Origin: Terriglobia bacterium
GTDB taxonomy: Bacteria > Acidobacteriota > Terriglobia > Bryobacterales > UBA6623
DNA length: 64,000 nt
Direction of reading: 5' to 3'
Assembly: GCA_963824095.1 (NCBI GenBank)
Contig: CAWGNS010000009.1
Location: 348,272 to 412,271, forward strand
The notes beneath the pieces were generated by a model. The model searched no databases. It saw only the letters and a program-made list of their open reading frames with translations, and was not told the origin of the DNA. Position numbers and translations under genes: made by a program. Positions 4,046 through 47,201 of this stretch are shown here, in pieces. Positions within the stretch are counted from its first letter, which is position 1, and every line of letters begins with the position of its first letter.

Positions 4046-5736
4046 CCGTGCCCTTCGCAGTCCGGGTGTTCGTGCTCTCGTTCGCGCCGCTGTGCATGCT
4101 GCTGATCGGCAGCTTCTGGTCCATCCAGTACATGGTCGGCCAGCAGGTCAAAAACGGCCTGCGCAACTCGCTGCGCCAGAGCCACGCCTTCGTCTCGCGC
4201 GTGCGCACCAACTACGAGCTGCAAAACAGCCGCCTGCTCACCGTGCTCGCCGAAAACCCCAGCCTCAAGGCTGGCTTCGACCTGGTGCGGCTGGAGCGCG
4301 ACAATCGCGGCGCGCAGCGCACGCTCGAAGATCAGTTGCACGAGCTGAGCGAATCGCTGGGCTTCGACCTGATGGCGGCCGCCGACACCAACGACCGGCT
4401 GCAGGCCGGCGTCGTGCGCGTCCGCGGCCAGCTCACCCACATCGACCTCGACCGCGCCCCGCCACTCAAGGAGGGCGCCGTTTCCTTCGGCGACTCGATC
4501 TACGTGCTGGCCCGCATTCCGGTCAACCTCGAGCACGAGAGCCTCGGCAGCCTGTTCGTCGGGCGCGTCTTCGACGTCTCGGAGTTCACCACCCCCACCG
4601 TGCTGACGCATGACGGCAAGGTGGTGCTGTCGAACCTGCCGGGCGTCCGCGCCGCCGAGCTGGAAAGCGGGCTGCAGCCGTGCTCTCCGCAGGAGGAATG
4701 CGAGGTCTCGCTGCGCAACGAAACCTATCTTTGCCTGCCGCTGGAAAGCATCCGCCTGGGGGACGGCTACGTGCTGCGCAGCCTGCAGTCGGTCGACGCC
4801 GCCAGCCGGCCGCTGCGCGCCGTGGTGCAGCAGGTGTTTCTGGTGGCCGGGACGCTCGCGCTGCTGGCGGTCTCGGTGCTGTCGCTGCTTTCCTCCAAGG
4901 GCATCGTCAAGCCTCTCACGGGTCTGATCACGCGATTAAGAGAAAGCGAAAGCAGCGGCGTGCTGCCGACCTTCGAAACCTCCTCGTCGACGCGCGAGGT
5001 GAATCAGTTGGTCGACGCTTTCAACCGCGCCGCAACCGCCATCACCGACGCCCGCCAGCGGCTGAGCTTCGCCTACCGCGAATTCACGCAGTCGCTTTCG
5101 AGCGCCATCGACGCCCGCGACGTCTACACCGCCGGCCATAGCCGCCGCGTCTCGACCTACGCCGTCGCGATCGCGCGCGAGATGAAACTGCCCGACGAGG
5201 AACTCGAAATCATTCGCGAAGGAGCCTTGCTGCACGACGTCGGCAAGATCGGCATCTCCGACCGCGTGCTGCAAAAGCCCGGCAATCTCTCGCCCGAGGA
5301 ATTCGAGTTGATCCGGCGCCACCCGCTGATCGGCCGCCGTATCATCGAGCGCGTCGAAGGTCTCGCGCCTTACTTGAACATCGTCGAGCTGCACCACGAG
5401 AACTATGACGGTACCGGCTACCCCTGGCAGTTGGTGGGCGAAAAGACGCCGCGCGACGCGCGTGTCATCCACGTCGCCGACGCCTACGACGCGATGACCT
5501 CCGACCGCCCCTACCGCAAGGGCATGAAGCCCGATCAGGCCCTGAGCATTCTCAAGGCCAACGCCGGAACGCAATTCGATCCCGACGTCGTCGCCGCTTT
5601 CGTGCGGCTGCACGGCCGCGTTGTGCAAGACGAAAAACGCTCCGCCGAAACGCCCTATGAGCCCGACCTCGACCGCCTGAGCCGCGCGCTGGGTTCGGCC
5701 GCCGATGTCGACGCCACCAAGGAGCTCATGTCATGA
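4042..5736 (+). CDS. HD-GYP domain c-di-GMP phosphodiesterase with periplasmic sensor domain and HAMP
   Basis: ATG 4042 overlaps the upstream stop (ATGA). Two TM helices flank a ~260-aa extracytoplasmic region. HD-GYP signature HDVGKIGI...HHENYDGTGYP...HVADAYDAMTSDRPYR. Confidence 0.85.
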   Translation: MTVPFAVRVFVLSFAPLCMLLIGSFWSIQYMVGQQVKNGLRNSLRQSHAFVSRVRTNYELQNSRLLTVLAENPSLKAGFDLVRLERDNRGAQRTLEDQLHELSESLGFDLMAAADTNDRLQAGVVRVRGQLTHIDLDRAPPLKEGAVSFGDSIYVLARIPVNLEHESLGSLFVGRVFDVSEFTTPTVLTHDGKVVLSNLPGVRAAELESGLQPCSPQEECEVSLRNETYLCLPLESIRLGDGYVLRSLQSVDAASRPLRAVVQQVFLVAGTLALLAVSVLSLLSSKGIVKPLTGLITRLRESESSGVLPTFETSSSTREVNQLVDAFNRAATAITDARQRLSFAYREFTQSLSSAIDARDVYTAGHSRRVSTYAVAIAREMKLPDEELEIIREGALLHDVGKIGISDRVLQKPGNLSPEEFELIRRHPLIGRRIIERVEGLAPYLNIVELHHENYDGTGYPWQLVGEKTPRDARVIHVADAYDAMTSDRPYRKGMKPDQALSILKANAGTQFDPDVVAAFVRLHGRVVQDEKRSAETPYEPDLDRLSRALGSAADVDATKELMS

Positions 5737-5752
5737 CCGGGGGCCGCCTGTC

Positions 5753-6835
5753 ATGAAACCGCGAGCGGCTGCCTGCCTGGCCGTTTTGCTCTGGCCGCTG
5801 CTCGTGCCGGCCCAGGAAAGCGTCGCCGGCTTCGAGATGCCGCTCACCCTCAGCGGCGGCGCGTTCGTCACCGAGCGCACCGAGCAGCCGCCCCGCTCGG
5901 CCTCGAGCTTCACCGCGGGCACGCGCCTGGTCGCCTACCCGACCTTGCGCCTCAACGAGCACTGGTTTTTCTCGGGCGCCGTGCAGTTCCACTCGCGCCC
6001 TTACTATTTTCAGGAACTGGGGACGCAAGGCTACGGCGCCGAGGTCGACGTGCTGCAGGCCTACGCCGGATACGAGCGTTTCTGGGGACGCAACGTCGTC
6101 ACGATTCGCGCCGGGCAGCTCACCTCGGCCTTCGGATCGTTCCTGCTGCGCTACGACGACGCCGTCAATCCGCTGATCGATCTGCCGCTTTCCTACGGCT
6201 ACTACACTTCGCCGGTGACGAACCTGGGACTGGTGGGCGCGCAGGCCGACGTTACCCTCAACCACCTCGACCTGCGGGCGCAGTTCACCAACAGCTCGCC
6301 CGCCAATCGCCGCAGCATCTTCGACCCCGACCAATACGGCACCTGGACCGGCGGCGTCGGCTACACGATTGTGCAAGGCCTGCGCGTCGGCGTCTCCGCG
6401 TATCGAGGCCCCTACCTCGATCGCGAATTCCCCTTCTATTTCCCCGGCGAGCGCCCGCCGAAAGAACTGCCGGCCAGCGGCTACGGCCTCGAAGGCGAAA
6501 TGGCGCGCGGCCACTGGAACTTTCACGCCGAGGCGCACCGCTTTCAGAGCGCCTACAAAGCGATTCCGACCGTCAACCGTTTCTTCGCCTACGGAGAAGC
6601 CCAATACGCCTTCCGCCCGCGCTGGTATGCCGCGGTGCGCGTCAACCACGGCCACTCGAACGTATCGCGCGACCAGAACGTCTACGAATTCGCCATCGGC
6701 TACCGCCCCAACCGCTTTCAACTCGTTAAAGTCGGCTATGAACTCGTCAAAGGCTCGCCGCGCGATGGGGCCCCCGGAGACGTCTTCGCGATTCAACTGG
6801 TGACGACCCTGAGGCCGATCTCCAAAGCCTGGTGA
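5753..6835 (+). CDS. putative outer-membrane beta-barrel protein
   Basis: ORF 5705..6835(+), start at ATG 5753 (MKPRAAACLAVLLWPLLVPAQE signal peptide). Alternating beta-strand pattern rich in Y/G/R, terminal aromatic (..ISKAW). 17 nt after the HD-GYP stop. Confidence 0.55.
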   Translation: MKPRAAACLAVLLWPLLVPAQESVAGFEMPLTLSGGAFVTERTEQPPRSASSFTAGTRLVAYPTLRLNEHWFFSGAVQFHSRPYYFQELGTQGYGAEVDVLQAYAGYERFWGRNVVTIRAGQLTSAFGSFLLRYDDAVNPLIDLPLSYGYYTSPVTNLGLVGAQADVTLNHLDLRAQFTNSSPANRRSIFDPDQYGTWTGGVGYTIVQGLRVGVSAYRGPYLDREFPFYFPGERPPKELPASGYGLEGEMARGHWNFHAEAHRFQSAYKAIPTVNRFFAYGEAQYAFRPRWYAAVRVNHGHSNVSRDQNVYEFAIGYRPNRFQLVKVGYELVKGSPRDGAPGDVFAIQLVTTLRPISKAW

Positions 6836-8514: not shown

Positions 8515-8821
8515 GGGTAATTCAGAGCGGGTAGTGCCACATGAGGCTGGGCGACGCTTCGGCAAGGTTCAAGACCCGGCGCCGCGTGCCGAGGACTGGC
8601 ATTGTACCGTGACGGAAGGATTCAGGCGGGAACAAATGCCGGCGGGGGGAAGAAGAAGTAGGAGGGTAACCCCGATCGAAGCCGAAGTCCCATCCAGTGG
8701 CGCGGCCCCGAATCCGACGTTCCCCAAGGGCCCACGAAAAACTCCAACGACAGCCAACAAAAACGCCAGGCACAAACACGAGCACCGCCAGTTCCGTCGG
8801 CGGACACACGGTCCAGCCCGG

Positions 8822-10438
8822 CTACTCATCCAAGCCAAACACAAACAACCCCCGCCCGGCGGTAACCGCAATCCGCTGGCCGCCTTCGCTCTCATAGCTG
8901 ATCGGGTTCGAACGCATCGACCCACCGGCCTGGAAATGCCACACCACTTTGCCGTTGGTCGCATCGAGGGCAAAAATGTCGCCTTCGCCGGTGCCGCCGA
9001 ACACCAGCCCGCCCGCCGTCGATAGGACGCCGCCGCCGGGCGGCGAATGCAGCGGAAACTCCCACTTCAGATCACCCGTCTCGGGCTGGAACGCTCGAAT
9101 CGCCCCGAAGGCCTCTTCACCCGGCACCTTCTGCGCCCCGCCGCCGTTGTACAGGCTGCCGGCCTTAAACTCCGCCGCACCCTTGTAGTAGACGTTACCC
9201 ATTTCTAGCGCCGCCACAAAAAACAGATGTAGTTCGGGGCTGTAGGCCGGGCTCTGCCAGTTCGTGCCGCCGGACAGACTCGGGTAGACCGTATTGCCCT
9301 CTGCAGTTGGAGAAGTATCCGGCAACACCATCGGCCTGCCGTTGTCGTCGAGCCCACTCGCCCAGGTCTGCTTCACGTATGCCTTGCCGCTCACAAATTT
9401 CCCGCTCTCGCGGTCGAGCACGTAGTAAAAGCCGTTGCGATTGGCGAATAGCACCAGCCGGCGCCGCTCACCGCGCACCTCGCCGTCGGCCAGCACGGGA
9501 ACCTGCACCGAATCCCAATCGTGGGTGTCGTGCGGCGTGAACTGGAAATACCACTTCAGTTTGCCGGTATCCGCGTCGAGCGCGACGATGCAGTCGGAAT
9601 ACAGGTTGTCGCCCCCGCGGACGTCGCCGTTCCAATCCGGACCTGGATTGCCCGTCCCCCAATACACGAGGTTCGTTTCGGGATCGTAGGCGCCCGTGAC
9701 CCAGGTCGTAGCCGAGCCCTGCTTCCAGCTTTCACCGGCCCAGGTTTCGGCGCCGGGCTCACCGGCAACAGGGACGGTCCAGAAGCGCCACAGGCGGTCG
9801 CCGGTCTTGGCGTCATAAGCGTCGAGAAAGCCGCGCACACCGTACTCGCCGCCGGCCATGCCGAGAATCACTTTGCCCTGGAGCGCCAGCGGCGCTGCCG
9901 TCATCGAAATGCCGACCTTGTAATCGGCCACCTCGACGTCCCAGCGCACCTGCCCGCTGCGGGCGTCGAGCGCCACCAGGTGCGCGTCGAGCGTGCCGAT
10001 GTAGACCATGTCGTCGAGCACCGCCACGCCGCGGTTCACGCGGCCGCAGCACAGCGGCATGCTGTCGGGAATTTTTCGCTCGTACTTCCACAGCGGCCGG
10101 CCGGTTCGCGCGTCGAGCGCCGTCACGTCGCTGGGCGGCTCGCTGATGTACATGATGTCGCCATCGACCAGCGGCGTCATCTCGAAACCGTGGGTCGTCG
10201 AGGTCTGATAGACCCACAGCGGCCGCAGCCGCGCGGCGTTGTCGGGCGTGATCTGGCGCAGCGGGGAATGCCGTTGCCCGAGGTAATTTCCCGAGTAGGT
10301 CAGCCAGTTGCCGGGCTCCGACGCGGCCGCGTCGCGGATTCGCTCGTAGCTCACCTGGCCCGCCGCCGGTTTCACCACGAAGCCCAGCGCCACGAGCCCC
10401 AGCGCCAATGCCAAACCCCAGCACGCCCGCTTGCTCAT
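8822..10438 (-). CDS. PQQ-dependent dehydrogenase, methanol/ethanol (type I quinoprotein) family
   Basis: Signal peptide. NWLTYSGNYLGQRHSPL, vicinal Cys pair PLCCGRVNRG, GGEYGVRG, TPHDTHDWDSV, repeated propeller W-motifs. Confidence 0.85.
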   Translation of the reverse strand: MSKRACWGLALALGLVALGFVVKPAAGQVSYERIRDAAASEPGNWLTYSGNYLGQRHSPLRQITPDNAARLRPLWVYQTSTTHGFEMTPLVDGDIMYISEPPSDVTALDARTGRPLWKYERKIPDSMPLCCGRVNRGVAVLDDMVYIGTLDAHLVALDARSGQVRWDVEVADYKVGISMTAAPLALQGKVILGMAGGEYGVRGFLDAYDAKTGDRLWRFWTVPVAGEPGAETWAGESWKQGSATTWVTGAYDPETNLVYWGTGNPGPDWNGDVRGGDNLYSDCIVALDADTGKLKWYFQFTPHDTHDWDSVQVPVLADGEVRGERRRLVLFANRNGFYYVLDRESGKFVSGKAYVKQTWASGLDDNGRPMVLPDTSPTAEGNTVYPSLSGGTNWQSPAYSPELHLFFVAALEMGNVYYKGAAEFKAGSLYNGGGAQKVPGEEAFGAIRAFQPETGDLKWEFPLHSPPGGGVLSTAGGLVFGGTGEGDIFALDATNGKVVWHFQAGGSMRSNPISYESEGGQRIAVTAGRGLFVFGLDE

Positions 10439-11211
10439 TGCTCACCTCGCAGCGAAACCAGGTAGGCCACCACATCGGTCAACTCGGCCTCGCTCAACGT
10501 GCCGCCGTAGGCCGGCATCGGCGACTTGCCGCGCTGCTTTTCGATCGTGGACAACTCGTCCTTGCGGAACGAATGCAGTTGGCCGGAGTAGTCGCGGATC
10601 TGAATCGTGAAGGTGTCTTCGTTGAGGCGGACGCCCGTCAGCGCCTGGCCCTCGCGCGTCACCAGGCGCACTTGCAAGAATTCCTGGGGAATCTCGGCCT
10701 CGGGTTCGAGCAGCGCGCGCTTCAAATAGAGCACGCTGCGCCGCGCGCCCACGTCGCTCAGCTCCGGACCCGCCAGCCCGCCGGGAGTCTCGGCCGTATG
10801 GCACGAAAGACAATCCCCCTTGCCGCGAAAAATGCGCTCGCCCGCGACCGGATCGCCGGGAACCTCCTCGGGCGCGCGCTTCCCGAGGGTCTCGACGAAG
10901 TTGGCGACCAGCCACACCTCGCGTCCGTTCATCTGCCAGGCGCTGGGCATTTCCGTGCCCTCCACGCCGTCGCGGATCAGGCGGTAAAGCTCAAGGGGGT
11001 TTGAGGCGCGCCGCAACTTGGGCCGCGCCAGGTTGGCGCCGCGCCCGCCGTCGCCGTGCGGCCCGTGGCAGGGGGCGCACTGGCTCTGAAACAGCGCTTC
11101 GCCGAGCGTCAGGTTTTGGGGAGTGGGGGGCAGCCGCGGCGGCACCGGTTCCTCGTCCTGTTGTGCCCAACAAAGCGTACAGAACAGCGCCAATCCCAAA
11201 GCAAACCGCAT
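10435..11211 (-). CDS. dihaem c-type cytochrome
   Basis: ORF 10435..11454(-), start at ATG 11211 (MRFALGLALFCTLCWA signal). Two CxxCH motifs (CAPCH, CLSCH). Its stop overlaps the PQQ gene start (ATGA at 10435-10438). Confidence 0.8.
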   Translation of the reverse strand: MRFALGLALFCTLCWAQQDEEPVPPRLPPTPQNLTLGEALFQSQCAPCHGPHGDGGRGANLARPKLRRASNPLELYRLIRDGVEGTEMPSAWQMNGREVWLVANFVETLGKRAPEEVPGDPVAGERIFRGKGDCLSCHTAETPGGLAGPELSDVGARRSVLYLKRALLEPEAEIPQEFLQVRLVTREGQALTGVRLNEDTFTIQIRDYSGQLHSFRKDELSTIEKQRGKSPMPAYGGTLSEAELTDVVAYLVSLRGEQ

Positions 11212-11699
11212 AGGCCCCCGGGGATAGAAGAATGTCTGGCGCTGGAGTATAGCACGAAATTCCAGTGCCAATCGCACGCAATTACCGGCGTCGCACCGCG
11301 CCCCAGGCCCTGCGCGGCGTCCCTTTGGCGGGCCGCCATCCACCGCTGTGGCGACTACGCGACCCGCCAACCGTATGGAGCTACGATGAACAGAACGCCA
11401 ACCGATTCGGTACCCTGAGCCATGCGCAACAGATCGCGCCGCGCCGATTGCCACGCGGAGCCGCGAGCGTCAGCTTGCGCTGAGAGCTGGACGGCGAGAT
11501 CGTGTTTTCTAGCCGGACGGTGGTTCCTGGGGCGGTACTTGGCGCGGCCCGCGCCCGCGGTTCCGAGAGACGCCGCCAACCGTTGGCTCGCCGGTTGTTC
11601 GCCCGCCGGCGAGGGTTTGTGCTGCTTCAGCCCGCTGCTCAGGCCTGCGGGCCGGTTCTGGCGCGGTCTTGTTTTTCGAACGCTCGCACACCACTACGT

Positions 11700-12749
11700 A
11701 TGTCCACAAACGATACTGCCCAGCCGCAATCCCCAGCCCCACGGTCTCCGGCCTCGCAACCCTCGGCCCCAAAATCTCCGGCGATGGAAACGCGCGACCT
11801 CGTCAAGACTTATCCCGGCGGCGTGCGCGCCCTCGACGGGCTCACGTTTGCGGTCGAGCGCGGCACGGTGTTCGGTCTGCTCGGACCCAACGGGGCAGGG
11901 AAGTCGACCGCCATCAAGATCCTGACCACGCTGTCGCGGCCCGATTCGGGCACGGCCAGCGTCGCCGGCTTCGACGTCCTGCGCGAGCCGCAGCAGGTGC
12001 GCCGCGCCATCGGCTGCGTCGCGCAGCGCTCCGGCGTCGACATGGAATCCACCGGCCGCGAGAATCTCCGGCTGCAAGGCCAGCTCCACAGCATGCGCGG
12101 CCCCGAACTCGCCACGCGCGCCGCCGAGCTGCTGGAGCGCTTCCGCCTGACCAAATCCGCCGACCTGGTGGCGCGCACCTATTCGGGCGGCATGCAGCGC
12201 AAGCTCGACATCGCCATGGGGCTGATTCACCGGCCTCAGGTGTTGTTCCTCGACGAACCCACGACCGGGCTCGACCCCGAAGCGCGCACCGACCTGTGGG
12301 AAGAGATCGCCCGTCTCTCGCGCGAAGGCCTCACCATTCTGCTCACCACGCACTACCTCGACGAAGCCGACCGGCTCGCCGAGCGGCTGGCGATCGTCGA
12401 CCGCGGCCGGGTCGTCGTCCAAGGTTCGCCCGAGCAGCTCAAGGCCGAGCTGCGCGGCGATTCGATCGAGATTGACCTGGCGGCGACCGAATCGGGCGCT
12501 TCTCCCGAAGAGTCCACCGTGCGGCTGGCGCTGGAAAAGGTCAACGGCGTGCGCGACGTGAGCCTCAACGGCATCGAGCTGCACGCCCGCGCCGACCATG
12601 GCGCCACCGCTGTCCCTGCCATGCTGGCCGCCCTGGAGGCGCAGGGCGCGCGCGTCGCCTCGGTGAAGGTCTCGCGCCCTTCGCTCGACGACGTCTACTT
12701 GCGCTATACCGGCCGCACCTTCGAGCAGGCCGAAGGAGAAACCCGATGA
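11700..12749 (+). CDS. ABC transporter ATP-binding protein (DrrA-like, ABC-2 exporter type)
   Basis: Walker A GPNGAGKST, signature YSGGMQRKL, Walker B VLFLDEPTTGLD. Start uncertain (ATG 11700 or ATG 11784, METRDLVK). Confidence 0.85.
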   Translation: MSTNDTAQPQSPAPRSPASQPSAPKSPAMETRDLVKTYPGGVRALDGLTFAVERGTVFGLLGPNGAGKSTAIKILTTLSRPDSGTASVAGFDVLREPQQVRRAIGCVAQRSGVDMESTGRENLRLQGQLHSMRGPELATRAAELLERFRLTKSADLVARTYSGGMQRKLDIAMGLIHRPQVLFLDEPTTGLDPEARTDLWEEIARLSREGLTILLTTHYLDEADRLAERLAIVDRGRVVVQGSPEQLKAELRGDSIEIDLAATESGASPEESTVRLALEKVNGVRDVSLNGIELHARADHGATAVPAMLAALEAQGARVASVKVSRPSLDDVYLRYTGRTFEQAEGETR

Positions 12750-13519
12750 CGATGATCGCTCACTCCTACTTCATGACCCTGCGGCTGCTGCGGCACCTGT
12801 TGCGCCAGCCCTGGTATATCGCGCTGACCTTGGTGCAGCCCATCATCTGGCTGGTCTTCTACGGCCAGCTCTTTCAGAAAATCTCTTCGCTGCCGGGTTT
12901 CGGAAGCGACTCCTACATCGATTTCCTGGTGCCCGGCATCGTCGTCATGTCGGCGCTGTTCTCCTCGGGCTGGAGCGGTATGGGCATGATTCACGACCTC
13001 GACCGCGGCGTGATGGACCGCTTTCTGGTCTCGCCCGCCAGCCGCCATGCCATCATCGCCGGCCGCCTGCTGCATCTCGCCTTTCAGAATTGCGTCACCG
13101 GCTCGATCCTGATCACGCTCGGCCTGGTAATGGGCGCCCGCTACCACGGCGGAGTACTCGGCGTCGTCGTGCTGCTGTTGTGCGCGGTGCTGCTGGCCGT
13201 CCCGTTCGGGGCGTTATCGAATGCCCTGGCGCTGACTTTGCGCAAACAGGAATCGGTGATCGGGGCGGTGAACTTCGTGTTGCTGCCGCTGCTGTTTCTC
13301 TCGCCGGCCTTCATGCCCTCGGCGTTGATGCCGCCGTGGATTCTGAAGGTGTCGCAGCTCAACCCGGTGAGCTGGAGCGTCTTCGCCGGCCGCGCCGCCT
13401 TGCACGGCACCGCCGACTGGAACGCGACCCTACTGCGCATCGCCTGCCTGATCGGCTTCACCTTCGTCAGCGGCTGGCTGGCAACCGGAGCCTTTCGCAG
13501 CTACCAGCGCTCGGTGTAA
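12746..13519 (+). CDS. ABC-2 type transporter permease
   Basis: ATGA overlap with the ATPase stop, GAAGGAG upstream, six predicted TM helices, typical ABC-2 size (257 aa). Confidence 0.8.
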   Translation: MTMIAHSYFMTLRLLRHLLRQPWYIALTLVQPIIWLVFYGQLFQKISSLPGFGSDSYIDFLVPGIVVMSALFSSGWSGMGMIHDLDRGVMDRFLVSPASRHAIIAGRLLHLAFQNCVTGSILITLGLVMGARYHGGVLGVVVLLLCAVLLAVPFGALSNALALTLRKQESVIGAVNFVLLPLLFLSPAFMPSALMPPWILKVSQLNPVSWSVFAGRAALHGTADWNATLLRIACLIGFTFVSGWLATGAFRSYQRSV

Positions 13520-13571: not shown

Positions 13572-14704
13572 TCAATGGGTTCTCGAAATCGCCGCCTCGA
13601 ACAGTGCATCGCCAATATCGCTGTGGTCAATTACCTCGAGCCGCAGCGGATCGATGAAGCTGAGCAGGCCGCTGACGCCGTCGAGGTGGATGATGGCGTT
13701 CTCGGTCACTTGCAGGTCATCACCGCTCCCTCGCCGCCGCGCGCCGGGAAGAGCTACGAAATCCGTCAGGGTCGCGGTTGCAACGTCCACGATCCCGATT
13801 CCGACGGTATCGAAATCATTCTCCGACTGCGGCGTCGGTACGTCGGCCACGTAGACCTTCGTCCCAAACGGATCCATAGCGATCTCGGTCGCCTCCCGCA
13901 GCGCCCGCCGCGACGGACTCTGCCCCGCCAGGCCGCCGATTTGCGCGATCACGGTCTGCGTGCGGATGTCGATCGCGTAGAGAAACGGCGTGTCCAGGTT
14001 GGCCAGCACAAACAGCAGCGCGCCATCGGGCGTCATCACGATCTCGCCGCTGCGGCCACCCGGCGGCAGATCGATTCTGCCCGGTCACGGCGCCGCTCTG
14101 CAGATCGACGAGCAGAACCATCTGTTCCCCGGTCTGCCCGCTGGGGCCCAGCACCGAGGTTGAGACATAGGCGGTACGCCCGTCCGGCGAGATCACCAGG
14201 CTCACCGGCCAAAAGGTTTCGTCGAGTTGGATGCGCTTCTCGATGCGCCCGGCGACGGCGTCGATCACGGCCAGGTGGGGCGGCACGGGGTTGGTCGGAA
14301 AAATGCTGCGGTCCGAGCCCCTCGCCGCTACGACGAGCTGCGTGTCATCGAACGTGGACGCCATGTCCTGCGGCTCAAAGAATGCTTCACCCAGGCCTTG
14401 CTGCAGGTCGACCCGAGTCCAATAGGAAAGGTCTTCGGGATTCACAAAGTCGACCGTCGGCGGGCTCGGCGCCGGGCCGCCGTCGCGAAGCATCATGTTG
14501 CCGGGCGTCGTTGAGAACGCGGAGTTGCTTCACGCGCGCTATCCCGGGCGCGCCCGGCGCCGGCGCGAAGGCCCGAATGATGCTGAGCGGCTCGGTGAAC
14601 TGGCCGGTCTGGGCGTCAGGCCACTCTCCACGCTCCACATACCCACGACAGGTCGATTGAGCACCCCAGCCTCGTCGAGGACGCTCGATTGCTTGTGCCT
14701 TCAT
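13572..14704 (-). pseudogene. YVTN/beta-propeller repeat protein disrupted by two 1-nt frame shifts
   Basis: Three consecutive ORFs in different frames (14387..14704, 13816..14496, 13572..14039). Read-through gives ...LLVDLQSGAVT|GRIDLPPGGRSGEIVMTPDGALLFVLAN... (shift ~14078-14090). Second shift ~14497-14535. Confidence 0.6.
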
Positions 14705-17461: not shown

Positions 17462-17519
17462 TTCCCGCACAAGGCGTCATACTAGATAGCATCCTCGCAG
17501 TCGGCGGGGCTCGTCTGCT

Positions 17520-20394
17520 ATGTCTTGGAATTGCCTTTCGATGCTCAGCGCCCAGCTCCGAGCGCAAGTTGGCGCCGCCCGCTATGACCCCACGCCGAGC
17601 GCCGCCCGCCGGCGTGCGCTGCTATTTGGCGCGCTTTTGATCCTGTTCGGCTCTGCCGCCTGGGCGCAATCCTCGCGTGTGAGTGGCGCGCTGCAAGGCA
17701 TCGTCGTGGACGAAACCGGGGCCGCGGTGCCCGGCGCCGCGATCTCGCTCACCGAGCAGGAATCGGGTTGGCAGCGTACCGCGGTTTCCGGCGCCGACGG
17801 CCGCTTCCTGCTCCAGGGTCTGCCCAGCGGCGAGTATCGCGTCCGCGTGGAGCAGGAAGGCTTTGCCGCGGCCGTCATCGGCGGTGTCGCCATTTCGCTG
17901 GGCGGCACTACGTTGGAGCGCGTTGAACTGAAGCCCGCCGCGGTGACCGAATCGATCGAGGTCGAGGCGCAGGCCGGAGCGGTGGAAACCAGCGCCACTT
18001 CCGCGAGCGCCGCGCTGGGCTCCGAGCGCATCGAGGAAGGCCCTTCCTCGAACCGCAACTTCTTGAACTTCGTGCTGGTGGCGCCCGGCGTCGCGGCTTC
18101 GAACGGGTCCAACGCGCAGCGCTCGCTCACCGGCTTGCGTAGCGCCATGCCCGACAGCGGCTTTGCTTTTGGCGGCATGCGCGGGCGCAACAACAGCCTC
18201 TCCATCGACGGCGTCGACAACCGCGACGAGACCACCGGCGGCAACCGCGTGGCGGTGGGCGTCGAGATGGTGCGCGAGTTCCGCGTGGCGGGCGCCATCC
18301 TCGGCGCCGAGTTCGGCGGCGCGGCCGGCGGCGCGGTCAACGTCGTGACGCGCTCGGGCAACAACCAGTGGCACGGCGACTTCACCTGGTTTTTTCAAAA
18401 CGAAGCCGTCAACGCCCGCGATCCCGAAGTCACCGCCGGCCGCGCGCCCAAGCTCCGCAAATACCAGCCGGGATTTTCCGTAATGGGTCCGCTGCGGCGC
18501 GACCGCACGTTTTTCGCGATGGCGCTCGAACAGGAATGGGAGAACGGCGAGGAATGGTCGGACACTCCCGCCGCCTATGCCCCGGCGATCGACCACGTGC
18601 TGCAAAGCCCTGCTTACGAGCACAGCGGCGTGAGCAGCGTCACGAAGGGCCTGTTCCCCACGGCGTCGTCGGAAACCGAATATTCGTTCAAGATCGACCA
18701 TCAGTTCAGCTCCGCTCAAACCTTCACGGCGCGCTACGCGTTCTCGCGGGGGCGCGTCGACGACCAGGTGCAGGGGCTCGACAATTTCGCCGACCGCTCC
18801 AGCCGCGGCAGCAGCTACGTGCGCGATCACTCGCTGGTGGCGGCGCTAACGAGTGTGCCGCGTCCCAACCTGGTGAACGATCTGCGGTTTCAATACGGCC
18901 GGCGCGACATGTCGCTAGAGCCCAACAGCCCCGGGGCCATGCTCGAAGTGCCGGGCCTGATCACCCTCGGCCAAGCCTATACGCTCGATGCCGCTCGCGC
19001 CGAACAGCACTGGGAAGTCGTCGAGGGCATGAACGTCATTCTGGGCTCTCACCAGCTCGGTTTCGGGGGCAGCCTGCATCAGATCAGCCTGGATGCGCGC
19101 CTGGCCAACCGCTTCGCCGGCGTGTTCGTCTTTCCGACTCTCGACGACTTCCTCCAGGCGCGGCCCGACGTTTTCCTACAGGCGTTCGGCGAAGCGCCGA
19201 CGCGCTATTCCACCACGCCCGCCGGCCTGTGGTTCCAGGAGCGCTGGCAGCCCTGGCAAAGGCTCACCTTCGAAGCCGGTCTCCGCTGGGACGCTCAATC
19301 GCTGCCCGCACCGTTTTCCGGTCCGCGCGCCAATCTCGCCCCCCGGCTGGGGCTGGCCTGGGTGCCGTTCGGCGACCGCTCCTCGCAGCGTCCGTTTGTG
19401 ATTCGCGCCGGGCTGGGCTGGTTCTACGACCGCTTCCCGCTCGCATTTCTCAACGATGCCATCCAGAAAGACGGTGTCCGGGGTTTCGAGCAATACCTGG
19501 TGGGCGACACAGCGGTTCGCGCGCTCCAGCAGGGCGCCGGCGGTCCGCTGGCAATGCCGCTGGCCGGCGAGCCCACCGCCGCCTACCGGCCCGATCCTCG
19601 ATTTCCCCTCGACCTACAGCCGGAAAGTCACGCTCGGAGTGGAAAAGGGCCTCAACAAAGAGACCCGGCTCACCATCGAATATGCCGCCGTGCGCGGCTA
19701 TCATCTGCCGCGCGTGCGCAACATCGCCGGCGGGTTGCCGCCTGCCTATCAACTCGAGCAAACCTCGCGTTCGTCCTATCACGGCGTCACCGTCTCGGTC
19801 GAGCGCAAGCTGATCCGCGACGTCTCGTTTCTGGTGGCTTACGGCTACAGCCGGACCTGGGACGACGCCTCGGACTTCGACGAGCAGCCGCTCGATCCGT
19901 TCGATTTTTCACTCGATTGGGCCTTGTCGCGCCAGCATCAGGCGCAGCGTTTCACCGCCAGCGGATTGTTCGAACTGCAGCCCGAGGAATGGAACTGGGC
20001 TCCGCCGTGGCTGCGCGAGGGCCTCGACGACGTCATTGTTTCGCCGATCTTCACCGCCGGCTCGGGGCGTCCGGTGAACGCGCTCAGCTCAACCGACGTG
20101 TTCCGCACCGGCGCGTTCCCGATCTCGGCCCGCCCGCCAGGCCTGGCGCGAAACCCGTTTCTTTCGCCAGGCACGGTGAATGTCGATCTGCGCATCATGA
20201 AGGGCTTTTGGGTCAAGAACGGCCGTGCTATCGTGCAGGCGGGAATCGAAGCCTTCAACCTTCTCAACCATTCGAACGCCTTGCGCGTGAGCCCCTACTA
20301 CGCCGCCGGCGCCCTGCAACTGCCCTCCTACGGAGAACCGCTCGAAACCCTGGGAGCGCGGCGCATTCAGATGATGGTGCAGTTTGAATACTAA
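17520..20394 (+). pseudogene. CarboxypepD_reg-like / TonB-dependent receptor-type outer-membrane protein with one frameshift
   Basis: N-terminal GIVVDETGAAVPGAAISLTEQESGWQRTAVSGADGRFLLQGLPSGEYRV then plug/barrel-like sequence. Frame 17520 becomes Arg-rich noise after ..AAYRPDPRF. The barrel continues in ORF 19456..20394 (..STYSRKVTLGVEKG...IQMMVQFEY). Shift at ~19600-19612 at a C4 run. Confidence 0.7.
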
Positions 20395-20496: not shown

Positions 20497-20845
20497 CTAG
20501 GCCGGCTGGAAAGGTACCACTGCCGGGTTCTAGATGACTGTCGCACACAGAACGGCCTGAATGCCCTTTTTCGGCGGTCTGCTAAACCAACTGGCCGAGC
20601 CGGCGCCACGCCGATTCCCAACCGCGCGCATAGCCTCCTCCCCGACAACGGCAATAAGGCGTTCGCCCCCTCCACGCCACGTTTTCTCAAACAACCCGCC
20701 GCCGGTCCGATAAGACCTGGGTCACCAGCAAAGCAGTTCGCCCTCCCACCCCTCCGCAACGTCCGCGAAGGCCCCCATGGGGCCCGGCGCGCGGAAAACT
20801 CCAACGGGCGCGAGCGCTTGCTTCATTCCAGGAGGAACGTCATCC

Positions 20846-21634
20846 ATGTCGAAGTTGAAATGGCTTCTCGTAGCTCACGCGGCTCTGGCCATCCTGCTCG
20901 CGCCCGCGCGCGCCATCGCCCAAGAGGAAGAGCCCGTGACCTGGGGCTACTCCGGGCCGGGCGGCCCCAGCAATTGGGCCGACATCAACGAGGACTACGC
21001 CATCTGTGGCTCCGGGACCAGCCAGTCCCCCATCGATCTCGATTCGCTCACCAGCACCGCGCGCTACGGCGGGGCCGTCGAGTTTCATTACAACCCAACC
21101 GATCTGACGATCCTCAACAACGGCCATACCATCGAGGTGGAATACGATCCAGGCAGTTGGATCGTCGCCGAGGGCCGCACCTACAACCTCGTGCAGTTTC
21201 ACTTCCACTCCCCCAGCGAGCATACCTTCGGGCGCGGCGCGCACTTCGACATGGAAATGCACCTCGTGCACCGCACCACCTCGGGGTCTCTGGCCGTGGT
21301 TGCCGTCTTGATTCGTGAAGGCAAGGAAAATACGGCGCTGGCCCCGGTCTGGGAGCGCCTGCCCTCCGAAGAAGGTGAGGAAAGGTTCCCCGATGTCGAG
21401 GTCGACGCCACCGACGTACTGCCCAGTGACAGCCGGGCCTTCCACTATATGGGGTCGCTGACCACGCCGCCGTGTAGCGAGAGCGTCCGCTGGTTCGTGC
21501 TGCGCGAGCCCATCGAGATGTCAGCCGAGCAGATCGCTCAGTTTCGAGCCGCCTTGGAGGCGAGTTGCTGCACCCAGAACAATCGCCCAACCCAAAGCCT
21601 CAACGGCCGCCGGATCGGTCTCGACCTCTACTAA
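20846..21634 (+). CDS. alpha-class carbonic anhydrase, secreted
   Basis: AGGAGGA 9 nt upstream of ATG 20846. Signal peptide. WGY..GP..W, SPIDL, zinc-His context QFHFHSPSEH and MEMHLVH, GSLTTPPCSE. Confidence 0.9.
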   Translation: MSKLKWLLVAHAALAILLAPARAIAQEEEPVTWGYSGPGGPSNWADINEDYAICGSGTSQSPIDLDSLTSTARYGGAVEFHYNPTDLTILNNGHTIEVEYDPGSWIVAEGRTYNLVQFHFHSPSEHTFGRGAHFDMEMHLVHRTTSGSLAVVAVLIREGKENTALAPVWERLPSEEGEERFPDVEVDATDVLPSDSRAFHYMGSLTTPPCSESVRWFVLREPIEMSAEQIAQFRAALEASCCTQNNRPTQSLNGRRIGLDLY

Positions 21635-36532: not shown

Positions 36533-36578
36533 GTAGGGTAGGCGCTCGCGCCTGCCGCGCCGCAAACCGGCGCCCGCC
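36533..36578 (+). repeat. repeat family F copy
   Basis: gtagggtaggcgctcgcgcctgccgcgccg + caaaccggcgcccgcc. Direct repeat of 35937. Confidence 0.85.
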
Positions 36579-36582
36579 TTTG

Positions 36583-36614
36583 CCGATCAACCGATCGACG
36601 GATCAACCGGCTCA
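36583..36614 (+). repeat. repeat family G: 8-bp tandem array CCGATCAA-like x4
   Basis: ccgatcaa ccgatcga cggatcaa ccggctca. Lies 75-100 nt upstream of the + strand gene starting 36689/36713. Confidence 0.75.
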
Positions 36615-36688
36615 TTCTTGAGCCCCCCGCGCGTTGCGGGCCGCCGCGCGTTCGGCTTACACTCGGGCGCTGGGTTCGACGAACCAGG

Positions 36689-38476
36689 ATGTCGACGAAC
36701 GGGGGTAGGGCCATGGTCCAACGAATGTGCTTGCCTGCGCCGCGAGCCGCGGCCGCACGCGGCGTCGCGGCGATCGTCGCGGTTTTCTTTGCGGTATTGC
36801 TTGGCGCCCAGCCGGCTCCGCAGCCAGCCCCGCAACAGGCCGCGCGCGCGCAGCCCGAGCCTCCGGCGCCGCCCGCCGACGTATCGGTCGAGGCCGACAT
36901 CGACTACTCCAATGTCGGCGGCCGCATGCAGATGGACGTTGTCCGCCCGCTGCGCGGCAATGGCCCCTTCCCGGCCGTGGTCTGCATCCATGGCGGCGGC
37001 TTCCGCGCCGGCACGCGGCAGAGTTTTCTGCCCATCGCCTACTACCTGGCGCAGCACGGCTACGTCGCTGCCACGGTGACTTACCGCCTCAGCCCGATGA
37101 ATCAGTTTCCCGCGCCGGTCGAGGACGTCAAGGCCGCGGTGCGCTTTCTGCGCGCCAACGCCGCGCGCTTCGATGTCGACCCCGATCGTATCGGCACGGT
37201 CGGCGGCTCGGCGGGCGCCCATCTGGCGTTGATGCTCGGCGTCACGGGCGGCGTGGCCGAATTCGAGGGCTCGGGCCCGAATCTCGATCGCTCCAGCCGC
37301 GTCCAGGCCGTGGTGAGTCTCTATGGGCCGACCGATTTCACCAAGTCCTACGAGCCGGGCAAGAGCGTCGACGCAGCCGAGGTGCTGCCGATGTTTCTGG
37401 GCGGCGATCTCGAGCACAACCGACCGGCGCATCTGCGCGCCAGTCCGCTCTTTTGGGTGAGCCCCGACAGCGCGCCGACACTGGCCGTCCACGGCACCAA
37501 GGACAACTACGTCGCCTATGAGCAGGCCGTGTGGATAACCGAGCGTCTGGAGGCGGCCGGCGTCCCCACCAAACTCGAAACGATCGAAGGCGCCGGCCAC
37601 GGTTTTCACGGCGCTGATCTCGAACGGGCCAAGACGGCGATGCTGGCCTGGTTCGACGAATATCTGGCGCCGCGCTCCACCCAACGCTTGTTGCTGGTCG
37701 CCGATCACGGTCCGCGGGGTGAAATCGTCGCGCTCGACTGGCCCTCGGGCCGCGAGCGCTGGACGCTGCCCAATAACCACGGCCACGACGTACAGCTTCT
37801 ACCCAACGGCCACGTCCTCTACACCACCGGCGACTGGCGCCGCGTCGTCGAGGTCGATCCGCGCAAGATCGGCGGCGGAAACGAAGAGGTCTGGAGCTAT
37901 GGCCTCGCCGAGGGCCTCAAACATCCGGTCGCCGCCGAACGCCTCTCGAATGGCAACACCGTCATCGGCGACATGGAACTCGGCGAAGTCATCGAGGTGG
38001 ACGCGGCGGGCAAGATGGTCTGGGAATACAAGAACCCCGAGATGGCCGGACATCGCATGCGCAGCGTGCGGCGCACCGCCGAAGGCACCACCTTGATTGC
38101 GATCGAGCGGCTCAATAAGGTGATCGAGGTCGACCCCGGCGGCAAGATCATCTGGACCTTCCACGCCACCGGCGGCGACGAGCGCTTTCCCTACCAGGCG
38201 CATCGGCTCCCCAACGGCAACACGCTGATCGGCATGGCCGCGCCCGGCGAAGTCGTCGAAGTGGCCCCCGACGGCAAGATCGTGCGCTCGGTCGGCGGCC
38301 TCAACGACGCGCTGCGCATGGCCTGGTGCTCGGGGCTCGAGCCTCTCCCGGGAGGAGGCTTTATCGTTTCGGATTACACCGGCAGGCGCTTGCTCGAATT
38401 CGATCCAGACTGGAAAATCGTTCACGAACTGCGTATGGGCCCACGCACCATAGCCAGCGTGTCGCTGATCCCCTAG
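36689..38476 (+). CDS. alpha/beta hydrolase (esterase/lipase-like) fused to a C-terminal beta-propeller domain
   Basis: Start ATG 36689 or 36713. Signal-like segment. HGGGF oxyanion motif (CIHGGGFRAG), GGSAGA nucleophile elbow, HGTKD, GAGHGF. C-terminal ~260 aa with repeated ..G..VIEVD..GKIVW.. blades. Confidence 0.75.
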   Translation: MSTNGGRAMVQRMCLPAPRAAAARGVAAIVAVFFAVLLGAQPAPQPAPQQAARAQPEPPAPPADVSVEADIDYSNVGGRMQMDVVRPLRGNGPFPAVVCIHGGGFRAGTRQSFLPIAYYLAQHGYVAATVTYRLSPMNQFPAPVEDVKAAVRFLRANAARFDVDPDRIGTVGGSAGAHLALMLGVTGGVAEFEGSGPNLDRSSRVQAVVSLYGPTDFTKSYEPGKSVDAAEVLPMFLGGDLEHNRPAHLRASPLFWVSPDSAPTLAVHGTKDNYVAYEQAVWITERLEAAGVPTKLETIEGAGHGFHGADLERAKTAMLAWFDEYLAPRSTQRLLLVADHGPRGEIVALDWPSGRERWTLPNNHGHDVQLLPNGHVLYTTGDWRRVVEVDPRKIGGGNEEVWSYGLAEGLKHPVAAERLSNGNTVIGDMELGEVIEVDAAGKMVWEYKNPEMAGHRMRSVRRTAEGTTLIAIERLNKVIEVDPGGKIIWTFHATGGDERFPYQAHRLPNGNTLIGMAAPGEVVEVAPDGKIVRSVGGLNDALRMAWCSGLEPLPGGGFIVSDYTGRRLLEFDPDWKIVHELRMGPRTIASVSLIP

Positions 38477-40621: not shown

Positions 40622-40685
40622 CCCGAAGCGGGACGCGGCAAAGCGGGAGGTTCACGCCACGGGCAACCGGTCTGGCTTCGGGTGC
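40622..40685 (+). repeat. repeat family A partial copy 5
   Basis: cccgaagcgggacgcggcaaagcgggaggttcacgccacgggc...gcttcgggtg. Fills the gap between two convergent stops. Confidence 0.6.
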
Positions 40686-42769
40686 TACTCGCCCTTCAGC
40701 AGCCCTTTCGCCGTGGCCACCACCAAATCCGGCTCGAACCCAAACTTGGTTTGCAGCTCTTTGAGCGGGGCCGACGCTCCAAACGTGTGCATGCCGATGA
40801 CGCGGCCCGCGTCACCGACATAACGCTCCCACCCGAACGTCGAGGCCTGCTCGATCGCCACGCGGGCTTTCACCTTGCGCGGCAGCACGCTCTCGCGGTA
40901 GTCGGCCGGCTGGCGGTCGAAGATATCCCAGGAGGGCATCGACACCACGCGCGAACGCACGCCGCCGGCGGTCAGCTTTTCGTGGGCGTCGGCCGCCAGA
41001 CTCAGCTCGCTGCCCGTGGCGATCAAGATTACCTCGGGGTCGGCGCCCGGGGCGTCGGCCAGCACGTAGGCGCCGCGAGCCACGCCCGACGCCGGCGCGT
41101 ACTTATTGCGGTCGAGCGTTGGCAGCGCCTGCCGCGAAAGCACCAGCGCCGCCGGTTGATGCCGCAGTTGCAGGATGTAGCGGTAAGCCTCGACGACTTC
41201 GTTGGCGTCGCCGGGGCGCAGCAGGACCAGACCGGGGATGGCGCGCAGCGAAGCGAGCTGTTCCACCGGCTGGTGGGTGGGGCCGTCTTCGCCGTCGCCC
41301 ATCGCGTCGTGGGTGAATACGAAAATCGTGGGCAGCTCCATCAGCGCCGAAAGCCGGATCGCCGGCCGAGCATAGTCGCTGAAGATGAAAAACGTCGCGC
41401 CGTAGGCCCGCAGCTTCGACAGCGACATGCCGTTGACCACCGCCGCCATGGCGTGCTCGCGGATGCCGAAGTGCAGGTTCTTGCCGCCGGGGCTGTCGGG
41501 CTCGAAATCGCCGGCGCCGTCGTAGGTCAACAGCGTGCGGTTCGAGGGCCCCAGGTCGGCCGAGCCGCCCAGCAGCCATGGCACGTTCTGCGCCAGAACG
41601 TTGAGCGCCTTGCTCGAAGCGTCGCGGCCGGCCAGGCCCTTGGGGTCGGCGGGAAACGCCGGCAGGTTGCGGTCCCAGCCGTCGGGCAACTCGCGTCGCT
41701 GCATGCGGTCGATCTCGCCGGCCAGCTCGGGATATTTGCCGCGGTATTCAGCGAACTGCGCTGTCCAGTTTTCGCGGGCCCGGGCGCCGCGCTTGCCGAC
41801 GCCGTCGGCGAAATGCTCGTAGACGCCGTCGGGAACCAGGAACTGAGCATCCTCGGGCCAGCCGTAGCTGCGTTTGGTGAGGCGGACCTCCTCGTCGCCC
41901 AGCGGCTCGCCGTGGGCCGCCGCCGTATCCTGCTTGTTCGGAGAGCCGTAGCCGATGTGGCTGTCGAGAATGATCAGCGTGGGGCGAGCCGTGGTTTCGC
42001 GGAAAACTTTCAGCGCGTGGCCGATGCGGTCGATATCGTTGGCGTCGCCGACGCGCAGCACGTTCCAGCCGTAGCCGAGAAAGCGCGCGGCGACGTCTTC
42101 GGTGAAGGTGATGCTCGTGTTGCCTTCAATGGTGATGTGGTTGTTGTCGTAGATCCAGCAGAGGCTGTCGAGGCGCAGGTGGCCGGCCAGCGAGGCGGCT
42201 TCGGACGCAACGCCCTCCATCAGGCAGCCGTCGCCGCACACGGCGTAGACGTTGTAGTCGAATACGGCGAACTCGGCCCGGTTGTAGCGGTGCGCCAGCC
42301 ATTTTTGGGCGAGGGCCATGCCGACACTGGTAGCGACACCCTGGCCGAGCGGCCCGGTAGTCGTCTCGACGCCCGAAACCCAGTGGTACTCGGGGTGGCC
42401 GGGCGCCTTGCTGTCGAGCTGCCGGAAGTGGCGAATATCGTCGAGCGTCACCGAGGGCTGCCCCAGCCGCTCGTAATCGGCGTTGACGGCCTGCGTGCGC
42501 GTCAGGTGGAGCACCGACCACAGCAGCATCGAGGCGTGGCCGTTCGACAGCACGAAGCGGTCGCGATTGGGCCAGATGGGGTCCCGCGGATCGAACCGCA
42601 TCTCGCGGTTCCACAGCGTGTAGACAAGCGGCGCAAGCGCCATTGGCGTGCCGGGGTGCCCCGACTTCGCCTTCTGCACGGCATCGATCGACAGCGTCCG
42701 GATCGTATTGATACAGAGCTGGTCGAGGTCGACGGTGGTCGCGGTTTCCGCAAGCTCTCCGACGCTCAT
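40685..42769 (-). CDS. tkt: transketolase
   Basis: ORF 40685..42898(-), start ATG 42769 (MSVGELAE). SGHPGTPMALAP, RDRFVLSNGHASMLLW, GPLGQG, GDGCLMEG, FTHDAMGDGEDGPTHQPVE. Confidence 0.95.
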   Translation of the reverse strand: MSVGELAETATTVDLDQLCINTIRTLSIDAVQKAKSGHPGTPMALAPLVYTLWNREMRFDPRDPIWPNRDRFVLSNGHASMLLWSVLHLTRTQAVNADYERLGQPSVTLDDIRHFRQLDSKAPGHPEYHWVSGVETTTGPLGQGVATSVGMALAQKWLAHRYNRAEFAVFDYNVYAVCGDGCLMEGVASEAASLAGHLRLDSLCWIYDNNHITIEGNTSITFTEDVAARFLGYGWNVLRVGDANDIDRIGHALKVFRETTARPTLIILDSHIGYGSPNKQDTAAAHGEPLGDEEVRLTKRSYGWPEDAQFLVPDGVYEHFADGVGKRGARARENWTAQFAEYRGKYPELAGEIDRMQRRELPDGWDRNLPAFPADPKGLAGRDASSKALNVLAQNVPWLLGGSADLGPSNRTLLTYDGAGDFEPDSPGGKNLHFGIREHAMAAVVNGMSLSKLRAYGATFFIFSDYARPAIRLSALMELPTIFVFTHDAMGDGEDGPTHQPVEQLASLRAIPGLVLLRPGDANEVVEAYRYILQLRHQPAALVLSRQALPTLDRNKYAPASGVARGAYVLADAPGADPEVILIATGSELSLAADAHEKLTAGGVRSRVVSMPSWDIFDRQPADYRESVLPRKVKARVAIEQASTFGWERYVGDAGRVIGMHTFGASAPLKELQTKFGFEPDLVVATAKGLLKGE

Positions 42770-42783
42770 GGTTTTCCTTTCGA

Positions 42784-44202: not shown

Positions 44203-44221
44203 GAGAATACCTTCCTTGTGC

Positions 44222-45241: not shown

Positions 45242-45347
45242 TGTGCGTTCTCCTTCCAGCGACGAGGCGGCGTTTCCTCGTCGTTTAGCGATGTTGTCGG
45301 GTGAGCGCCCGGCGTTGGGATAGCCGGCGGCCGCCGGGGGCCGGGCT

Positions 45348-46991: not shown

Positions 46992-47201
46992 GGTCGTAGT
47001 CCTTCGGAGCCAAAGGCGGCGAGGCCGCTTTTCCTGTTGCCGGACACTGCCGGCGGTTCTTATTGCCGGAAGCCGCCGCGACCCGGGCGGCGCTCGGGCG
47101 AAAAACAACCGGTGGCAGCGGCGGCCGGAGTGCGCTGCCGCTGTCTTATCGGCAACCGCTCGCGCCCGGCGAGGCGCGATTTCCTGCGGCAAGGGCGGCA
47201 A

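Follow-up and report, generated by a model that had tools for sequence, protein, structure and literature searches.

Positions 8,822 to 11,211 of a 64,000-nucleotide stretch of contig CAWGNS010000009.1 from a Terriglobia bacterium of the Bryobacterales (the whole stretch is called the window below) hold two genes on the reverse strand, one for a dehydrogenase of the methanol/ethanol family that depends on pyrroloquinoline quinone (PQQ) and one for a secreted dihaem c-type cytochrome. The operon probably specifies a periplasmic PQQ dehydrogenase that uses an alcohol-type substrate and, as its metal, most probably a light lanthanide, and that delivers its electrons to the dihaem cytochrome. The predicted metal site comprises the full lanthanide-type ligand set, E198, N264, D307 and D309. 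An earlier note on this DNA had described a D-x-D lanthanide site in which the usual Asn ligand was lacking and Thr stood in its place. That Asn is present, and correcting the reading is the main value of the present analysis. The dehydrogenase is an intact, ordinary member of a huge acidobacterial family of PQQ alcohol-type dehydrogenases; the features that make the module memorable are a strictly conserved dihaem partner unlike XoxG or PedF and, in related clades, N-terminal fusions of haem domains to the enzyme.

The metal site

The published metal ligands include Glu177 and Asn261 in MxaF, a methanol dehydrogenase (MDH), and comprise Glu172, Asn256, Asp299 and Asp301 in XoxF2 (4MAE) and Glu197, Asn285, Asp327 and Asp329 in XoxF5 (6DAM) (PMC11845868). 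These residue numbers were counted through HMMER alignments, and a second mapping was taken from a 112-sequence L-INS-i alignment. Both place the ligand Asn in a G-[ST]-[GS]-N-P motif (GTSNPG in 4MAE, GSGNPS in 6DAM) and match it to query residue N264 in WGTGNPGP (9647..9649, reverse strand), the equivalent of MxaF N261, 4MAE N256 and 6DAM N285. The earlier note had inspected the wrong motif. Its Asn-less site is favoured only by a superficial likeness of query GSATTWV (residues 241-247) to GGGTNWG, but the latter holds the Trp that stacks on PQQ (MxaF W243, query W246) and not a metal ligand; moreover, PedH, a proven lanthanide enzyme, reads GGAAPW and has no Asn at the position that had been named. 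Conservation was counted in 121 close and 83 broader relatives, and N264 is invariant in all of both. The missing Asn was thus an alignment error, so that the metal site is of the canonical lanthanide type and leaves no unusual coordination chemistry to explain. Published numbering, three alignment routes and the invariance of N264 together rule out an atypical D-x-D site with Thr as the replacement, to which next to no probability is given.

The D-x-D within TPHDTHDWDSV had been correctly registered. D307-W308-D309 (9512..9520, reverse strand), which contains the catalytic Asp and the lanthanide-type second Asp, aligns by HMMER with D323/D325 of PedH and D327/D329 of 6DAM, and also with D299/D301 of 4MAE; the second Asp does fall on the metal-coordinating position. 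From the Q-x-T-P-x-D anchor to the (N/D)-R-N-G anchor, both invariant, the query and the references align without gaps; the query, PedH, XoxF1/2/5, MxaF (4tqo) and both type II alcohol dehydrogenases (ADH-II) all have a distance of 27 residues from the catalytic Asp to its Arg (R334 in the query). The query family reads H-D-W-D where XoxF and PedH read W-D-[YF]-D, and a two-residue slip that would align the Trp residues of H-D-W-D and W-D-Y-D is excluded by the anchor spacing and by the nearest outgroup, P0121. As this outgroup reads PHDVWDWD, H306 represents a Trp-to-His substitution rather than a shift of register.

The Glu ligand in GGEYGVRG, E198 (equivalent to MxaF E177), is preceded by a lanthanide-type Gly (G197-E198, 9845..9850, reverse strand). 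This residue is an independent marker that agrees with the D-x-D: Gly occupies the position in all four lanthanide references, whereas the five calcium references read Ala, Ala, Asp, Ala and Ala. The residue before the Glu ligand has been noted as Gly171 in the XoxF of SolV, and the second Asp has been described as essential for lanthanide binding (PMC11845868), the latter also by Good et al. 2020 as cited in PMC10875860. Every sequence feature of the lanthanide class, namely Glu, Asn, catalytic Asp, second Asp and the Gly before Glu, is found in the query. Among the 83 broader relatives E198, D307, D309, R136 and W246 are as invariant as N264, and R334 is kept in 82.

The PQQ site

In the L-INS-i alignment, MxaF residues E55, C103/C104, R109 and T159 correspond to query E86, C130/C131, R136 and T180; E177, W243, N261 and D303 correspond to E198, W246, N264 and D307; and A305, R331 and N394 correspond to D309, R334 and N393. 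The PQQ-contact and catalytic residues E86, C130-C131, R136, T180, W246, D307, R334 and N393 are conserved. The vicinal cysteines lie in PLCCGRVNRG (10046..10051, reverse strand) and align with the pair that forms the PQQ-stacking disulfide ring in MDH, a ring usually deemed important in MDH-type enzymes. They are kept in 121 of 121 close relatives and in 63 of 83 broader ones. The other 20 broader relatives, found among loci L005-L084, have Gly-Phe or Gly-Ser at this place, keep the four metal ligands and, at each such locus with enough upstream sequence, retain the dihaem cytochrome.

Gene organization and the dihaem cytochrome

The cytochrome gene (10435..11211, reverse strand; 258 aa) lies immediately upstream of the dehydrogenase gene (8822..10438, reverse strand; 538 aa), and the start codon of the dehydrogenase shares an ATGA with the stop codon of the cytochrome (10435..10438, reverse strand). 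The two genes, this overlap and all the motifs quoted in the earlier note are present in the sequence, and the translational coupling between the dehydrogenase and a secreted cytochrome c with two haems, as claimed there, is borne out. The enzyme is indeed compact, at 538 aa as against roughly 575-630 aa for solved XoxF and PedH chains. Judged by eye, both proteins begin with a Sec-type signal peptide, which covers about residues 1-27 of the dehydrogenase. A scan for sigma-70 promoters found none. About 35 nt past the dehydrogenase stop, a weak terminator-like hairpin (8769..8786, reverse strand) gives weak evidence of a possible terminator for this gene; the scanned region contains six such sites against 3.0 +/- 1.7 expected. 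Neither the dehydrogenase nor the cytochrome has a paralogue within the window.

Two haem-attachment motifs, each with a conserved Met, and a signal peptide mark the partner as a dihaem class I c-type cytochrome. Haem 1 would be attached at CAPCH (C45, C48, H49; 11065..11079), with M88 (10948-10950) as the probable distal ligand, and haem 2 at CLSCH (C134, C137, H138; 10798..10812), with M232 (10516-10518) as the probable distal ligand, all on the reverse strand. Of 77 cytochrome homologues, at least 90% keep each of the two CxxCH motifs and each of the two Met sites, which lie in an 'MP'. Residues from about 33 to 110 form a class I domain of the Cytochrome_CBB3/CcoP-like type (PF13442, 5e-22), and residues 119-253 match TIGR02603, a 'putative heme-binding domain' (83.8 bits, cutoff 68.15). 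The dihaem protein 7zs0 of the PDB matches the cytochrome at 6e-12. The role of M232 as a distal ligand is suggested by the deposited variants of that protein, in which the aligned Met is replaced by His (7zs2) or Cys (7zs1). The cytochrome is neither of the cL/XoxG type (TIGR03872, XoxG/MxaG: 23 bits, cutoff 147.8) nor a PedF (TIGR04494, PedF/ExaB c550: 18.8 bits, cutoff 122).

Pairing and fusion of the two proteins

At each of the 78 related loci whose sequence extends far enough upstream, the gene directly before that of the dehydrogenase, in the same orientation, encodes a homologue of the cytochrome. The two reading frames overlap by four nucleotides (ATGA, GTGA or TTGA) at 70 of the 78 junctions, and 75 of the paired cytochromes have two CxxCH motifs. 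In eight cluster representatives, which share 42-49% identity with the query, a homologous dihaem cytochrome is fused N-terminally to the PQQ domain (P0128, E=2e-52), and in about 20 representatives a monohaem domain is fused in the same position. The fused proteins have a single N-terminal signal peptide and a hydrophilic linker rich in Pro, Ala and Ser with no remnant of a second signal peptide; these features, together with the many independent clusters, rule out an origin as frameshift artefacts. Obligate synteny, translational coupling and fusion indicate that the dihaem cytochrome is very likely the physiological electron acceptor of the dehydrogenase.

Across 81 loci no conserved neighbour was found beyond the cytochrome, and the next real gene cluster recurs in only five. 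As the neighbours are not conserved, genomic context gives no hint of the substrate. Extra cytochrome homologues occur near the dehydrogenase gene at three loci: in L005 (5622-6329) and L012 (7195-7878) they follow it on its own strand, and in L031 (8279-8968), which has several PQQ-domain matches as well, they are on the other strand. At such loci the module may be present in several copies, in tandem or in a cluster.

Family, fold and phylogeny

Membership of the type-I-like methanol/ethanol family, which the earlier note had proposed, is well supported. The dehydrogenase scores 571.4 bits against TIGR03075 in NCBIfam (curated cutoff 480.05) and matches PF01011 in Pfam at 3e-87. The second-best NCBIfam match, TIGR04528 ('acido-empty-quinoprotein group A'), reaches 511.7 bits and lies below its cutoff of 650. 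Among PDB chains the best match is PedH (6zcv, 387 bits, E=1e-114), followed by ADH-IIB (365) and ADH-IIG (337), while XoxF5, XoxF2 and a third XoxF score 327, 314 and 292 bits and qhEDH scores 318. An AlphaFold2 model has a mean local confidence (pLDDT) of 81 and a global score (pTM) of 0.84; in Foldseek it superimposes best on PedH, with a TM score of 0.86-0.87, and at about 0.85 on all solved eight-bladed PQQ alcohol dehydrogenases. A six-bladed soluble glucose/aldose (sorbosone) dehydrogenase can be dismissed, as no Pfam or NCBIfam model of that type matches and the strong matches are all eight-bladed.

The dehydrogenase has more than 8000 homologues, of which the named ones belong to Bryobacterales or Acidobacteria; relatives of the query are labelled 'alcohol dehydrogenase (cytochrome c)' by the Joint Genome Institute (JGI). 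No record of the exact protein sequence was found; the closest match, from a JGI metagenome, is 91% identical. Species-representative genomes yield at least 592 confirmed family matches, and several of these genomes have multiple copies. The 80 loci kept for comparison come mostly from Bryobacterales and other Acidobacteriota, with a few labelled Gemmatimonadota/Longimicrobiales or Acidimicrobiia. The earlier description of a poorly characterised clade holds for the biochemistry, but members of the family are very abundant and are annotated as a matter of routine, and the query is one more biochemically uncharacterised member of it.

An exhaustive search of representatives at 50% identity returned 3300 clusters at E<=1e-30, from which cluster representatives (P numbers) were placed in a neighbour-joining tree with 100 bootstrap replicates and nine solved references, none of them XoxF3 or XoxF4. 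The query family is monophyletic in 100 of 100 replicates, and the XoxF/MxaF references form a clade without the query just as often. A split that sets the query family and at least 35 other taxa apart from all nine references also recurs in 100 of 100, whereas the exact superclade as drawn is recovered in 63 of 100. PedH and ExaA cluster with P0216, apart from the query. In this tree the query family falls outside the XoxF/MxaF, PedH/ExaA and ADH-II clades. Among the Keltjens types 3-9 of PQQ alcohol dehydrogenases, 'Type 8' is reported to be abundant in Acidobacteria of soil.

A tentative proposal, held at somewhat less than even odds, places the query family in a large superclade of PQQ dehydrogenases that has so far not been described. 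Its members would be compact, read 'D-W-D' and use as electron acceptor a cytochrome c of their own, of the CcoP-like/TIGR02603 type, which is coupled to the enzyme in translation or joined to its N-terminus. If the proposal is true, the superclade would consist of lanthanide-type quinohaemoproteins whose domain order is opposite to that of the calcium-dependent type II enzymes, and it would provide a major, Acidobacteria-centred route by which electrons from alcohols or other compounds in soil enter respiration with the aid of rare-earth metals. In soil, Acidobacteria rank with the most abundant bacteria, and the module is found in hundreds of acidobacterial genomes, often in several copies. 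If it is truly lanthanide-dependent, much of the periplasmic oxidation of alcohols or related compounds in soils would hinge on rare-earth availability. The conserved dihaem partner and the fused versions also offer a defined pair for studying electron transfer from a lanthanide-PQQ site.

In one sub-branch of the superclade (P0133, P0137, P0168 and P0146) the catalytic Asp is replaced by Gly, with the motif GFD or GWD, and the Asn ligand by His, and most members keep the N-terminal haem domain. The active site of these proteins could work by another chemistry, or the proteins could serve a purpose other than catalysis.

Relation to known systems

The closest sequence matches are PedH/ExaF, lanthanide ethanol dehydrogenases of type 2b (6ZCV/6ZCW), at about 37-43% identity. 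Both they and the query are soluble eight-bladed propellers that have the Cys-Cys pair, the set of Gly-Glu, Asn and Asp-x-Asp, a Pro after GNP and a separate soluble cytochrome c. The query nevertheless differs from PedH in its H-D-W-D motif, where PedH has W-D-F-D, in its position outside the PedH/ExaA clade and in its length, which is about 40 residues shorter and includes a 16-residue loop deletion after residue 223. Its partner is dihaem whereas PedF is a monohaem c550, and there is no ped-type regulatory or aldehyde dehydrogenase context.

XoxF1/2/5 (6OC6, 4MAE, 6DAM) share with the query the Glu/Asn/Asp/Asp ligands, the Gly before Glu, the PQQ contacts, a periplasmic location and a gene for the cytochrome c acceptor that adjoins the enzyme gene. 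Unlike these enzymes, the query lies outside the MDH clade, lacks XoxJ, has a cytochrome that is not of the cL type and carries Pro267 in place of Thr259.

The type II quinohaemoprotein alcohol dehydrogenases (1KV9, 1YIQ, 1KB0) likewise combine a PQQ propeller with a c-type haem domain that is bound to it covalently or tightly, an arrangement echoed by the fused relatives of the query. They are of the calcium type, with D-x-T and Ala before Glu, and have a single haem domain at the C-terminus; the query is of the lanthanide type and its haem protein is separate, while in its fused relatives the haem domain is N-terminal and mono- or dihaem. The query itself ends with the propeller at residue 538, has no CxxCH and reads D-W-D, and it is not a type II enzyme.

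The TIGR04528 proteins are compact acidobacterial homologues (the model has 493 positions and aligns with query residues 43-536) that apparently belong to the same superclade, but the query is better described by TIGR03075 and its family keeps the residues for cofactor and metal. The C-terminal domain of the cytochrome (124-254) aligns with residues 179-315 of 7ZS0, including the CxxCH and the Met, and the N-terminal domain resembles the haem domains of CcoP (8smr_G, 4e-10). The 7ZS0 score is low (48.6 bits) and the CcoP family model reaches 53 against a cutoff of 180; the query cytochrome differs from both in its combination of domains and in having a dedicated dehydrogenase partner.

Proposed mechanism and alternatives

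We infer occupancy of the site by PQQ and a lanthanide, the direction of electron flow, the downstream acceptor and the substrate as follows. PQQ would be stacked between W246 and the C130-C131 disulfide and would contact E86, R136, T180, R334 and N393. The metal would be held by E198, N264, D307 and D309 and would polarise the C5=O of PQQ, with D307 acting as the catalytic base that takes the proton of the substrate hydroxyl. The carboxylate of D309 and the small G197 would allow a trivalent lanthanide, as in XoxF- and PedH-type enzymes, and it is this likeness that makes a light lanthanide the most probable metal. The dihaem cytochrome, both haems of which are predicted to be His/Met ligated, would then reoxidise PQQH2 by accepting its two electrons singly and would pass them on towards a terminal oxidase.

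Several observations weigh against this mechanism. G468 (9035-9037) replaces W476, a PQQ contact of MxaF, and is the sole contact to be replaced; the Gly is shared by the query's four closest relatives, within the family the position varies and also takes Trp, Arg, Tyr, Phe, His, Asn or Gln, and the ADH-II enzymes have Asn. The active-site loops of the AlphaFold2 model have a pLDDT of 52-71 (blocks 191-200, 241-250, 261-280 and 301-310), at which their geometry is not checkable. Annotation of the 64-kb window finds no genes for PQQ biosynthesis, PqqU, a LutH-type receptor or lanmodulin. The equation of D-x-D with lanthanide dependence is a convention of the field and not a proven rule. No biochemical test of any member of the clade was found in the literature, and metal heterogeneity within families has been reported (PMC11996626). 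The lack of pqq genes in the window is itself uninformative, because PQQ scavenging is documented in bacteria without such genes (PMC12124388).

The same module might instead bind Ca2+ or be promiscuous, with D-x-D as the ancestral state of the superfamily, an unlikely alternative that nonetheless carries appreciable weight. Nearly all clades sampled in the tree have D-x-D in most of their members, which makes the motif a weak discriminator; D-x-A/S/T is seen only in the references for MxaF, ExaA and ADH-II and in representatives that cluster with ADH-II. This distribution matches the findings of published surveys (lanthanide motif in 14 of 17 ocean PQQ-dehydrogenase families; 15 eight-bladed clades of weathered rock, Acidobacteria included), and lanthanide-type motifs have already been reported in many PQQ-dehydrogenase clades, acidobacterial ones among them (PMC11996626; bioRxiv 10.64898/2026.07.10.737718). 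The Pro at position 267, as in MxaF (and PedH) and not the Thr of XoxF, the lack of lanthanide-uptake genes in the window and the reported heterogeneity point the same way. Yet all tested enzymes with the second Asp need lanthanides (table in PMC11845868; PMC11996626), G197 matches the lanthanide and not the calcium references, and the invariance of D309 in 83 of 83 relatives implies functional constraint. A lanthanide methanol dehydrogenase of the XoxF type, such as XoxF3, serving methylotrophy would agree with the identical active-site ligands, with the JGI label of the relatives and with reports of XoxF3 systems in Acidobacteria (PMC10875860). It is very improbable all the same, given the fully supported MDH clade that leaves the query out, the equally supported separation of the query family from all nine references, the higher PDB scores for PedH and ADH-IIB, a chain some 40-90 residues shorter than those of solved XoxF enzymes, a partner that is not cL/XoxG, and the lack of xoxJ-like or cox genes nearby; the window annotation as a whole finds no xoxJ/xoxG, cox or other terminal oxidase genes.

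It has also to be asked whether the propeller is 'empty', that is, a non-catalytic protein in the sense of the acido-empty-quinoproteins, with some other role in an organism that does not make PQQ. TIGR04528 is the query's second-best NCBIfam match and outscores TIGR03075 for most compact representatives of the superclade, the window is devoid of pqq genes, and PqqU-encoding Acidobacteria without PQQ biosynthesis genes appear in one survey (PMC12124388). The query, however, falls short of the TIGR04528 cutoff and exceeds that of TIGR03075; the reported invariance of the PQQ-contact, metal and catalytic residues is hard to explain without a cofactor; its constant association with a cytochrome speaks for a redox catalyst; and scavenging offers a documented source of PQQ (PMC12124388). 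An empty propeller is accordingly regarded as marginally less probable even than a XoxF-type enzyme, and a lanthanide-type alcohol dehydrogenase that feeds the dihaem cytochrome remains the preferred reading.

Genomic surroundings

On one side of the module, across a 253-bp gap that contains the weak terminator-like hairpin, lies a same-strand gene for an APC-family permease, and on the other a divergent ABC-2 transporter, which with adjoining YVTN-repeat-like open reading frames (ORFs) occupies 11484-13519 on the forward and 13572-14496 on the reverse strand. Rare-earth-dependent growth of P. putida requires the PedA1A2BC system, of which PedA2 is a YVTN beta-propeller protein (PMC6839425). 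The ABC-2 transporter was rejected as evidence of lanthanide uptake: it is best matched by DrrA/DrrB, and its similarity to PedB/PedC-type models is sub-threshold (TIGR03864, 190.6 against 302; TIGR03861, 70.5 against 241). The YVTN-like ORFs are split across two overlapping frames, possibly by a frameshift or as a pseudogene. The ABC pair is also found beside an 85%-identical Bryobacterales relative (L085) and not in more distant loci.

Immediately downstream of the dehydrogenase, L085 (7870-12508) encodes a Fiu-type TonB-dependent receptor for catecholate siderophores, a YbiX-like Fe(II) dioxygenase and a PepSY_TM protein; the window has the amino-acid permease at the position of the receptor. 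This receptor was discounted, being of the Fiu type, accompanied by a YbiX-like dioxygenase as for an iron siderophore, and absent from the window. A TonB-like outer-membrane protein within the window (17490-20387) has no NCBIfam match.

Elsewhere in the window, a 384-aa ORF with a signal-peptide-like start (5681-6835, forward strand) is matched by no Pfam or NCBIfam model; it may form a beta-barrel of the outer membrane. A central carbon cluster (40685-47330, reverse strand) encodes transketolase, glucose-6-phosphate dehydrogenase and phosphoglucose isomerase; several of its stop-to-stop ORFs have long N-terminal extensions, owing to uncertain starts in sequence of 65% G+C. At 36542-38476 (forward strand) a 644-aa ORF joins a BD-FAE/alpha-beta-hydrolase esterase domain to a C-terminal beta-propeller-like region with PQQ_2, Mal s 1-like and arylsulfotransferase matches, and at 20714-21634 (forward strand) lies a carbonic anhydrase of the eukaryotic (alpha) type (1.4e-45).

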